A stretch of 4,384 bases of DNA from a virus (Duplodnaviria; Heunggongvirae; Uroviricota; Caudoviricetes), in IMG/VR virus record IMGVR_UViG_2703718872_000002, one strand, 5' to 3'. Position 1 is the first letter of the stretch; every line of letters starts with the position of its first letter. Positions 1,010-2,272 of the stretch are shown piece by piece. The translations under genes and the position numbers were made by a program. The notes beneath the pieces are model-generated. The model ran no database searches, was not told the DNA's origin, and worked only from the letters and a program-made list of their open reading frames with translations.

Positions 1010-2272
1010 ATGAGCGGATTTGCACAGGGGTTACTTGCCGGATTCAGCACCGTTGACCAGGCCATGACCCGTCGTAAGGAGCTTGGTCTGCGTGAAGCAC
1101 AGCTTGCTCAACAACAGAAAAATAACGAGCGCGATTTTGAATTTGCGCAGTCGCAGTTTGAGCATCGAAAGGAAAATGATCAGCGTACATATGATCTTAA
1201 TGTCAAAAATGCCGATCGTGAATATGCGCTGAAAGAGAGGGAACACGCCGCAGCGCAGAATTACCGGAATGCGTCACTTGGCATTTCTCAGCAGAGGCTG
1301 CAACTGGAAAAATACAACCAGCGACGGCTTGAGTATAACGATATGATTGCCCACAGCCAGCCATTAATGACAGCGCTTGGAAAAGCAATTGATGCTGGCG
1401 ATCAGGAGGCTGCAATGCGTATTTACGGGCAGTTACCAAAGGGACATCCATTAACTCTTATGTCAAGTGAAGGCTATGCAGCGAAAGCGGGTCAGGCCGT
1501 GAACAACCTGCAAAAAATCTTTGATGACAAGCCGGACAGGGCGATCGCTTCACTCAATACCCCGGAAAGTCTTGATGCGCTTTCTGGTGTGTTTGCCCCG
1601 GAACTGCAACAGCGTATTGGCATGCCCGATTCAACCGGGAAAAAGACGATAAAAGAGGCCAGGATTGGCAGTATCGTACCGGCGCAGCAGGAAGGGTACG
1701 TACTTATTGGCCTTGATCTCACATACAGCGATGGCTCCACCGCGCATAAACCTGTAACAGAATACGGCAGTGCACATCCTGATGATCAAACCGTGCTGGC
1801 GGTGCCTGTTGATAAGGCTATTGAGCTTGTCAGGGATCGCAGTAAATTCGCGGAAATTTCGAAAAATTTCGGTTATTTCACGCCGAAGCAGGAGGGGCTT
1901 TCTCTGAAAGATATCCAGAAAGAAGCCAGCCAGGTAGCAGCGGAAGCGATCAAGAACGGCGGTAATGCTCAGGCTGCGAGGGATGAATTTTTAGCTGCGC
2001 ATGGTTTACCGGAATATCAGCAGAAAATTCAGCAACAGAAATTTGAACAGCTTTTACAGAAGGGGCAGACCTGGGCGGAGGGCGATCCGGTCAAACTGGA
2101 GTTTGTCAAAGCGACTGCCGCCAATATGCCAGCCTTGCTGGAACCGGGGCGTGAAAAGGAACTGGAAATTTGGTACCAGAATCACCTCCGGGATAAAAAA
2201 GCCGAACAGGAAAAAGCGAAGAATTATAGCGCTGCTGCATCAGCCGAAGAGATCAGAGGCTGGATGAAGTAA
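1010..2272 (+). CDS. hypothetical protein, 420 aa; short N-terminal small-residue hydrophobic segment followed by a long highly charged (Q/E/R/K) probable coiled-coil region; function unknown
   Basis: ATG at 1010 to TAA at 2270-2272 with a good SD. Long uninterrupted ORF with antisense shadow ORFs only. N-terminus MSGFAQGLLAGFSTV, then …RRKELGLREAQLAQQQKNNERDFEFAQSQFEHRKENDQRTYDLNVKNADREYALKEREHAAAQNYR…. No catalytic motif recognised. Confidence 0.85.
   Translation: MSGFAQGLLAGFSTVDQAMTRRKELGLREAQLAQQQKNNERDFEFAQSQFEHRKENDQRTYDLNVKNADREYALKEREHAAAQNYRNASLGISQQRLQLEKYNQRRLEYNDMIAHSQPLMTALGKAIDAGDQEAAMRIYGQLPKGHPLTLMSSEGYAAKAGQAVNNLQKIFDDKPDRAIASLNTPESLDALSGVFAPELQQRIGMPDSTGKKTIKEARIGSIVPAQQEGYVLIGLDLTYSDGSTAHKPVTEYGSAHPDDQTVLAVPVDKAIELVRDRSKFAEISKNFGYFTPKQEGLSLKDIQKEASQVAAEAIKNGGNAQAARDEFLAAHGLPEYQQKIQQQKFEQLLQKGQTWAEGDPVKLEFVKATAANMPALLEPGREKELEIWYQNHLRDKKAEQEKAKNYSAAASAEEIRGWMK

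Follow-up and report, generated by a model that had tools for sequence, protein, structure and literature searches.

The DNA analysed here, referred to as the window at its full length of 4,384 nucleotides (nt), belongs to a tailed virus of the class Caudoviricetes (IMG/VR virus record IMGVR_UViG_2703718872_000002), and the subject of this analysis is one of its genes, which encodes a protein of 420 amino acids (aa). Judged by its sequence, the window comes from a short-tailed prophage of the Shiga toxin (Stx) type (Sepvirinae), where it forms the right-hand end of the block of virion genes. It is matched over at least 80% of its length by 186 phage records, all of them short-tailed Stx-converting phages or close relatives of Escherichia and Shigella, with Escherichia phage PhiR12_3 as the closest match (96%), followed by ArgO145 (92%), a member of the genus Oslovirus, subfamily Sepvirinae. 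In ArgO145, the corresponding region is found at the right-hand extreme of the late virion block, which ends at attR. The gene order there runs from portal, a 335-aa gene, major head protein, small structural proteins, tail fibre, a 566-aa gene and a 422-aa gene to Lom and genes of 133, 218, 148, 83 ('bacteriocin'), 420 and 2,792 aa (LPD5 domain-containing), after which attR follows. By position and size, the 566-aa and 422-aa (annotated tail fibre) genes correspond to the nozzle gp57 and the needle gp56 of phage phi24B. The window itself begins within the 218-aa gene, of which it holds the C-terminus, continues through the complete 148-, 83- and 420-aa genes and breaks off after 676 codons of the giant gene; an Rfam scan of it returned no match. 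Among 5,426 complete Escherichia coli genomes, 421 carry the 420-aa gene, with up to four copies per genome and in a few cases on plasmids, and its annotation is 'hypothetical protein' in every case. The features of the gene and its product are:

998..1003, plus strand: ribosome-binding site AAGGAG, 6 nt before the ATG, read directly
1010..2272, plus strand: coding sequence of the 420-aa protein, from the open reading frame (ORF) list; PHROG 601 (no known function) at E 6e-186, no Pfam match
1010..1066, plus strand: N-terminal motif G3xxxG7xxxG11-F12...D16, residues 1-19; conservation, disorder in the AlphaFold2 (AF2) model, phi24B virion peptide
1043..1396, plus strand: single long polar alpha-helix, residues 12-129, predicted in the AF2 model
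1403..1879, plus strand: conserved alpha/beta core, residues 132-290; conservation and AF2
1904..2266, plus strand: C-terminal helical region, residues 299-419; AF2 and alignment

The interval 1010..2272 is the single long ORF on the plus strand there, with an ATG start, and minus-strand ORFs reach at most 82 aa. The 420-aa ORF proposed in an earlier note, which was made from the sequence alone, is thus real, and the peptides and coordinates quoted for it are correct. The ribosome-binding site shares bases with the stop codon (TAA) of the 83-aa gene before it, so that both genes are tightly coupled. Purified phi24B virions yielded the peptide SGFAQGLLAGFSTVDQAMTR, whose sequence (residues 2-21) is the same in the window protein, which confirms the start codon and an unprocessed N-terminus experimentally for that phage and indicates that the N-terminal motif is kept in the mature virion protein. 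The note had further described a highly charged, Q/E/R/K-rich stretch following a short hydrophobic N-terminus. The polarity is borne out by a Q/E/R/K/N/D fraction (30-residue windows) of 0.47-0.70 at residues 11-110 as opposed to 0.20-0.43 at residues 101-320, the quoted peptide REAQLAQQQKNNERDFEF... beginning at residue 28. The charge is less marked, with D, E, K and R accounting for ~32% of residues 20-130 versus 27% overall and a net charge of ~0 in the polar part; 'very polar, Q/N/R/E-rich' is the better description of this segment. Likewise, the N-terminus MSGFAQGLLAGFSTVDQAM is only mildly hydrophobic and carries a glycine-zipper-like GxxxGxxxG motif. Scanning the whole length revealed no 19-residue window with a Kyte-Doolittle mean above 0.85, and therefore neither a transmembrane segment nor a signal peptide is predicted. 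A second Q/K-rich stretch near the C-terminus was found as described (EYQQKIQQQKFEQLLQKGQ, residues 335-353, nt 2012-2068, 32% Q).

Evidence on the location of the protein comes from phi24B and concerns its 77%-identical homologue gp48 rather than the window protein itself. A preprint combining cryo-electron microscopy (cryo-EM) with virion proteomics of this phage lists in its supplementary table 'gp48 Transcription factor?' at genome positions 47852-49114 with 421 aa, for which 1,634 spectra were recorded in total and 179 in the in-solution (batch) digest; the same digest yielded 101 spectra for the portal, 746 for the giant gp47, 83 for gp50 and 82 for gp51 (10.64898/2026.04.10.717836). The maximum of gp48 lies in the gel slice adjoining the 45-kDa coat-protein slice (10.64898/2026.04.10.717836), which fits an intact protein of 47 kDa. 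Scaling spectra per residue to 12 portal copies, we arrive at a rough estimate of ~37 copies of gp48 per virion and, by the same arithmetic, at ~23 copies of the giant protein, 6.2 of the hexameric nozzle, 10.7 of one dodecameric adaptor and 22 of the 18-copy fibre. The proteins modelled in the phi24B map are gp57, 61, 62, 64, 67, 69, 72 and 84, plus gp56, and gp48 is not included (10.64898/2026.04.10.717836). Being abundant in virions yet missing from the cryo-EM model, gp48 is therefore probably internal. The adaptor lumen of phi24B contains diffuse density that is gone in emptied particles (10.64898/2026.04.10.717836).

A second homologue, p68 of Aeromonas phage phiARM81mr (50% identical to one family member), is annotated 'putative virion structural protein', and so are three of its four neighbours in the gene cassette described below, the 83-aa-type protein being a bacteriocin by annotation. 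A paper on genes expressed in phi24B lysogens makes no mention of the 420-aa gene, and a proteomics paper on a phage of enterohaemorrhagic E. coli gives coverage for coat, fibre and 'virion structural protein' only. On this evidence we regard it as highly probable that the 420-aa protein is an internal protein of the virion.

Apart from phrog_601, whose function is not known, no family reached the threshold in Pfam and NCBIfam scans of the protein, a Pfam scan of 48 relatives gave no convincing match in any of them, and searches of the protein and of the 48-member profile against chains of the Protein Data Bank (PDB) returned nothing significant. A 27-residue near-match to the Rib domain ('VTY.DGST..PVT', E 0.03, PDB search) was unsupported by fold or Pfam searches and was rejected. 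Only 68 clusters were recovered in a profile search of 1.84 billion cluster representatives, with ~40 full-length proteins of 378-579 aa. The direct homologue search yielded only relatives of at least 80% identity (at least 92% for gp20 of phage P22), and the distant members were obtained from the representative search and from viral contigs. The resulting alignment of 48 sequences spans 17-44% identity outside the Stx group.

Within this alignment, G7 is found in 44 and G11 in 46 of the 48 relatives, giving the N-terminal consensus G3xxxG7xxxG11-F12...D16...L-G-L-R-E. The blocks of the core are the most conserved of the family, with the signature G204..D..GK (consensus GxxDPxxGKxI) and L.VTY.DGSTA.KPVT..RS..PDD.V..IP, in which D241, G242, P248, T250 and D259 are conserved at 90% or more; the C-terminal consensus reads W...DP.K..F. 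The long polar segment shows little sequence conservation (block conservation 0.15-0.30) but a steady length, with a median of 121 aa and a range of 100-139 aa across relatives at ~20% identity. It consists of Q, E, R, K, D and N to a median of 53%, has a net charge of ~0 and rarely contains proline, 47 of the 48 relatives having no more than one and the remaining relative two. As length, composition and neutrality are all kept at this level of divergence, the segment is not a chance feature. Among Stx phages, the gene is mosaic, the middle of the helix (aa 53-100, nt 1166-1309) occurring as two discrete alleles and the C-terminal third (aa 290-420, nt 1877-2272) as at least three, and residues 1-52 and 160-290 are nearly invariant.

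A first AF2 run based on nine close relatives gave a mediocre model with a predicted local distance difference test score (pLDDT) of 64.6, which was left out of the fold searches, and the run with the 48-sequence alignment reached a pLDDT of 80.8 and a predicted template modelling score of 0.47. In the monomer model, residues 1-18 are disordered (pLDDT <50) and residues 12-129 form one continuous helix of 118 residues, corresponding to ~17.7 nm if straight (0.15 nm per residue). From residue 21 on, the pLDDT of the helix block is mostly 68-91, the first turns falling below 50, with a dip to 71-74 at residues 81-100. A half-conserved L-G-[LI] (G91 in 22 of the 48 relatives) coincides with this dip, and L90-G91-I92 may thus act as a hinge. 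The core, predicted with beta strands at residues 213-266 (nt 1646-1807), is what the note had anticipated as a more globular middle. C-terminal helices were modelled at residues 299-315, 320-330, 334-356, 360-377 and 382-419, a region that includes the Q/K-rich stretch 335-353 and the conserved W355...D359-P360.K362..F365.

The suspected helical propensity is thus predicted by the model, and the searches matched no enzyme or Pfam family. We accept the extended helix, while the coiled coil also suggested for this region is unproven and weakly supported by the sequences. The helix of the window protein does show a 3.5-residue hydrophobic periodicity (z 2.7-3.9, with 3.9 at period 3.5, against 1,000 shuffles), and large hydrophobics occupy 45% of its a/d positions versus 24% overall. 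Across the 48 relatives, the heptad signal is weak (median z 0.88; z >2 in 21% of members). Assignment as a single alpha-helix (SAH) domain was considered and rejected, with E, K and R amounting to 25% and Q and N to 19% of the segment. Opposite-charge pairs at i,i+3/4 number 16 compared with 11.3 +/- 2.7 in shuffles.

The 420-aa gene belongs to a cassette of five genes, of which the window contains the following further features:

2..289, plus strand: C-terminal part of the ~218-aa cassette member (PHROG 611), homologue of phi24B gp51; runs off the left window end
292..738, plus strand: 148-aa cassette member (PHROG 596), homologue of phi24B gp50; kept in every syntenic locus examined
748..999, plus strand: 83-aa protein with C-terminal glycine zipper; Pfam Gly-zipper_YMGG at E 1.6e-6, just below the cut-off
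2318..2344, plus strand: terminator-like hairpin GCCCGAC-CATCGC-GTCGGGC, then T7 (a run of T), between the 420-aa and giant genes; sequence scan
2357..4384, plus strand: first 676 aa of the ~2,790-aa giant polyvalent protein, homologue of phi24B gp47; PHROG 616 and related families

The cassette encodes, in this order, a protein of 193-232 aa, one of 117-196 aa, a glycine-zipper protein of 77-90 aa (205 aa in contig L069), the 420-aa-type protein and a large protein, and the order is kept in every lineage with enough flanking sequence, across 17-44% identity. These loci comprise the enterobacterial prophages L043 and L046 (33-43% identity) as well as L050, which ends at the target gene, the high-GC viral contigs L056-L062 (25-26%), Vibrio phage 1.205.O, Aeromonas phage phiARM81mr and the metagenomic or genomic contigs L069, L071 and L072 (~20%), with the short contig L073 covering the upstream part only. 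Two adaptor genes, a ~534-aa nozzle-like gene and a needle gene usually precede the cassette. The downstream protein ranges from 674 to 4,891 aa and changes its domains between lineages. In the full-length ArgO145 orthologue of the giant, Pfam detects LPD5, LPD1, MuF_C and LPD38 further downstream, and other lineages carry LPD38 and a methyltransferase (Vibrio), LPD38 (L072) or InPase (two high-GC contigs). Polyvalent-protein domains were present in all five downstream proteins for which a Pfam scan or the record gave domains, and the Pfam scan detected no domain in the 674-aa protein of L059 nor in the fusion protein P0142. Phage-type polyvalent-protein domains are thought to be packaged and injected (PMC5512222). 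Fusions also link the cassette members to each other: the metagenomic protein P0137 joins the first 42 residues of an 83-aa-type protein in frame with a 420-aa homologue, and P0142 (1,386 aa) combines a 420-aa homologue with what is the downstream protein in the high-GC lineage (identity of 34-37% over 420 residues).

Gene order was then compared between the Stx, Vibrio, Aeromonas and metagenomic loci and phages P22, Sf6, phiSG1 and APSE-2. In the P22-like order, the needle gene is followed by gp14, gp7, gp20 (471 aa) and gp16. The 420-aa protein resembles P22 gp20 and Sf6 gp12 in size (420 aa versus 431-471 aa) and in position, all of them being encoded after the needle gene and a gp7-type glycine-zipper gene and directly before the largest ejected protein. 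Both are present in tens of copies, with ~37 estimated here and ~30 per virion reported for P22 gp20 (PMC8402733), and neither is resolved in virion maps. They differ in the downstream partner, which is the 609-aa gp16 in P22 and here a protein of 674-4,891 aa that is polyvalent where domains were identified. A more informative link to P22 lies in the neighbouring gene, as the 83-aa family ends in P[VW]GA.IGAG.G..GSLF and gp7 of P22, Sf6, phiSG1 and APSE-2 in PWGAAIGGGIGLLGSLF or a close variant, in both cases at the extreme C-terminus. The two profiles aligned over 19 residues with an hhalign probability of 96% (E 1.8e-9) versus 0.7% for a reversed-sequence control. The N-terminal region of the 218-aa family aligned weakly with P22 gp7 residues 27-72 (hhalign E 2e-3, probability 13%). 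A likeness between the 'GFLAGF' motif of the 420-aa protein and 'GGFLAGIG' of P22 gp20 was rejected as chance, as the hidden Markov model of the motif scores -1 bit on gp20; a motif of this type is absent from the gp20 homologues of phiSG1, APSE-2, Aeromonas and Skarpretter.

Phage N4 offers a second comparison. Its genes follow the order gp52 (150 aa), gp51 (644 aa, a slender helical tunnel protein) and gp50 (3,500 aa), thus likewise small, medium and giant, with a virion-packaged protein of ~3,500 aa directly downstream; T=9 capsids are found in both phi24B and N4 relatives. N4 gp51 (DEV gp72) and T7 gp15 have slender, mainly alpha-helical protomers of more than 14 nm, as in the model of the 420-aa protein, and those of N4 gp51 and T7 gp15 have been described as ~14 nm long and mostly helical (PMC13434306). 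In contrast to the 'leg fold' of T7 gp15 and N4 gp51, the 420-aa protein is predicted to combine an uninterrupted 118-residue helix with an alpha/beta core, and a shared fold with the solved structures was rejected, no sequence or fold match having been found. N4 gp51 also has membrane helices at both ends, whereas none are predicted here, and the cassette encodes three small partners, whereas the N4 type has one. Ejection proteins of the gp15 type are usually identified from their size and their place in the gene order, not from sequence (PMC8954989), and by this measure the 420-aa protein holds the gp20/gp15/gp51 position of its lineage.

From these observations, we propose with a probability of about 0.55 that the 420-aa protein is an ejection protein that forms the periplasm-spanning part of a conduit. 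Packaging into virions has been shown for the phi24B homologue, and ejection and conduit formation are inferred; this reading is the best-supported one and draws on virion proteomics, conserved gene order and analogy rather than homology. The earlier note had likened the protein to elongated scaffold or conduit proteins, and of these two the conduit is the one retained: a scaffold is unlikely for a protein that is abundant in mature virions and whose phage has another gene at the portal-coat position. In the proposed mechanism, the protein would be packaged with the giant and the proteins of 218, 148 and 83 aa, either in the head or in the portal-tail lumen, and would exit through the portal-tail channel upon release of the tail needle. 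It would then oligomerise in the cell envelope to form the middle, periplasm-spanning part of the conduit, in which the conserved polar helix of ~120 residues (~18 nm) could serve as a spanning or ruler element; ~18 nm is on the order of the periplasmic width. The conserved alpha/beta core may act as a ring-forming or docking module, the N-terminal glycine-zipper motif may dock to the glycine-zipper partners of 83 and 218 aa or to the membrane, and DNA and the unfolded giant protein would travel through the conduit.

Several observations weigh against this proposal. Ejection is deduced rather than observed, and the virion data stem from unseparated particles, the phi24B proteome representing a mixture of full and emptied ones (10.64898/2026.04.10.717836). 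The authors of that study propose only gp47 as an ejection protein, do not refer to gp48 in the main text and give it the table label 'Transcription factor?' (10.64898/2026.04.10.717836). Our copy estimate returns 2.5 for the other 12-copy adaptor, and spectral counts can err several-fold. The hhalign probability is below 1% against T7 gp13-16, P22 gp14, gp7, gp20 and gp16 and N4 gp51 and gp52, and 0.2% against a profile of six diverse gp20 homologues. PF16928 (Pfam Inj_translocase), the family carried by P22 gp20 relatives, is unmatched in the 420-aa protein and all 48 relatives up to an E of 1. The link to gp7 concerns a neighbouring gene and only 19 glycine-rich residues, and by the Kyte-Doolittle scan the 420-aa protein itself lacks a predicted transmembrane segment.

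The main rival is an assembly adaptor inside the head, by which the 420-aa protein and its small neighbours would recruit the giant into the procapsid without any role in a conduit. We consider this unlikely, and the two roles can coexist. A parallel would be phage P1, in which the loading of DarB into the head depends on Hdf, DarA and DdrA; in the Dar system, too, the giant polyvalent effector is packaged alongside head proteins of small and medium size. With its contractile tail, P1 has no need of an ejected conduit. Consistent with an adaptor, the N-terminal part of the giant has a weak PHROG match to a DarB-like family (E 2.8e-5), the 420-aa gene always lies directly upstream of a large protein, polyvalent where domains were identified, to which it is sometimes fused, the two are co-packaged in comparable numbers (~37 versus ~23), and the discrete alleles of the C-terminal third among Stx phages would fit a partner-specific contact. 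However, the four upstream genes stay constant while the downstream protein changes in size (674-4,891 aa) and domains, which fits general machinery better. In addition, these genomes show no other evident candidates for conduit proteins, and short-tailed phages of Gram-negative hosts generally carry ejection-protein genes (PMC8954989).

Less probable still is a non-ejected component, portal-proximal or at the inner capsid, that organises or retains the DNA and stays behind after ejection. Such a protein would be abundant in virions and invisible in symmetrised maps, as gp48 is, its long polar helix could lie along the portal barrel, and a density layer does stay inside emptied phi24B capsids (10.64898/2026.04.10.717836). 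A net charge of ~0, however, speaks against a DNA-condensing protein, the density in the lumen is lost on ejection, and the conserved cassette with a glycine-zipper partner matching the P22 gp7 tail points to ejection instead.

That the protein is no virion component at all and merely co-purifies from the lysate appears improbable. This explanation takes its support from the phi24B authors, who discounted four low-signal phage proteins as contaminants and describe one as 'a transcription regulation factor' (10.64898/2026.04.10.717836), which recalls the table label 'Transcription factor?' of gp48. Yet the batch-digest count of gp48 exceeds that of the portal, and the 15 'candidate structural proteins' stated are reached only when gp48 is counted, which makes Q or another small protein the likelier candidate for the discounted factor; this count is uncertain, being derived from the gene products named in the table. 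The independent annotation of the phiARM81mr homologue as a virion protein and the place of the gene in the late structural block, in conserved order, argue in the same direction. Finally, it is scarcely credible that one of the database labels is right, namely transcription factor or seryl-tRNA-synthetase-like (phi24B GenBank note), CheZ phosphatase (one nr name), tail tape measure (one UniRef name) or scaffolding: they are names alone, probably reflecting spurious similarity as all such proteins contain long helices, neither the protein at Pfam/NCBIfam thresholds nor any of the 48 relatives matches a family, a short-tailed phage is not expected to have a tape measure, and the scaffold position between portal and coat is held by the different 335-aa gene, the 420-aa protein being abundant in mature phi24B particles.

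Several neighbouring features deserve mention in their own right. The 83-aa protein is called 'bacteriocin' in RefSeq and was regarded as a contaminant by the authors of the phi24B proteome; from its sequence, a membrane-inserting ejection protein is more likely than a bacteriocin. The 218-aa protein, also encoded at 14633-15289 of L001, ends in the glycine-rich hydrophobic patch ASLVGAGLGAAGAYAMHKAGG..., and the giant has a weak glycine-zipper match at aa 405-432. Together with the motifs of the 83-aa and 420-aa proteins, glycine-zipper patches thus recur in four of the five cassette proteins. The hairpin between the 420-aa and giant genes is conserved, with the phi24B allele GCCCGGC/GCCGGGT in 25 loci and the window type in three, and the alleles differ by a compensatory A-T to G-C base-pair change. 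This change in phi24B-type phages suggests a functional terminator or attenuator that would keep the expression of the giant gene below that of the genes upstream. In GenBank, the giant gene of phi24B starts at 49148 (L003, HM208303), a position inside the hairpin, and the window (2357) and ArgO145 use the start ATGGC(C/T)TATTCAGA further downstream; the phi24B gene as annotated thus probably begins about a dozen codons too early. A BLAST comparison of the giant proteins with the virion RNA polymerase (vRNAP) of N4 was not significant, and we therefore attach no weight to a weak match to a PHROG named 'virion RNA polymerase'. With 4,206-4,891 aa, the downstream proteins of L069 (11503 onward) and L071 (11856 onward) are among the largest phage proteins. 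In phiARM81mr (L068, 2598-4231), genes for a retron-type reverse transcriptase and a 23S rRNA-intervening-sequence protein lie inside the virion block.

The family of the 420-aa protein has had no described function, while podovirus ejection proteins as a kind are well known, and the cassette varies the known three-protein scheme by having three small partners and a polyvalent giant. A bolder version, which we put forward only tentatively and consider doubtful, would make the five-gene cassette a distinct type of ejectosome for effectors of several thousand residues plus DNA, in which the 420-aa protein would be a periplasm ruler of ~18 nm with a new fold, its glycine-zipper tip locking into gp7-like partners, evolved independently of the tunnel proteins of T7, P22 and N4. 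Even in the form favoured here the claim is a modest one, assigning a function by context to one protein family rather than establishing a new principle. Short-tailed Stx phages spread Shiga-toxin genes among E. coli, and the sole structural study leaves the abundant gp48 undiscussed and names just the giant as an ejection protein. The conserved five-protein cassette and the motif-level link to P22 gp7 now provide concrete candidates for the conduit. They would also offer a tractable system for the delivery of a protein of ~2,800 aa through a narrow channel, in parallel to recent work on N4, and are thus relevant both to infection by Stx phages and to the translocation of giant proteins.

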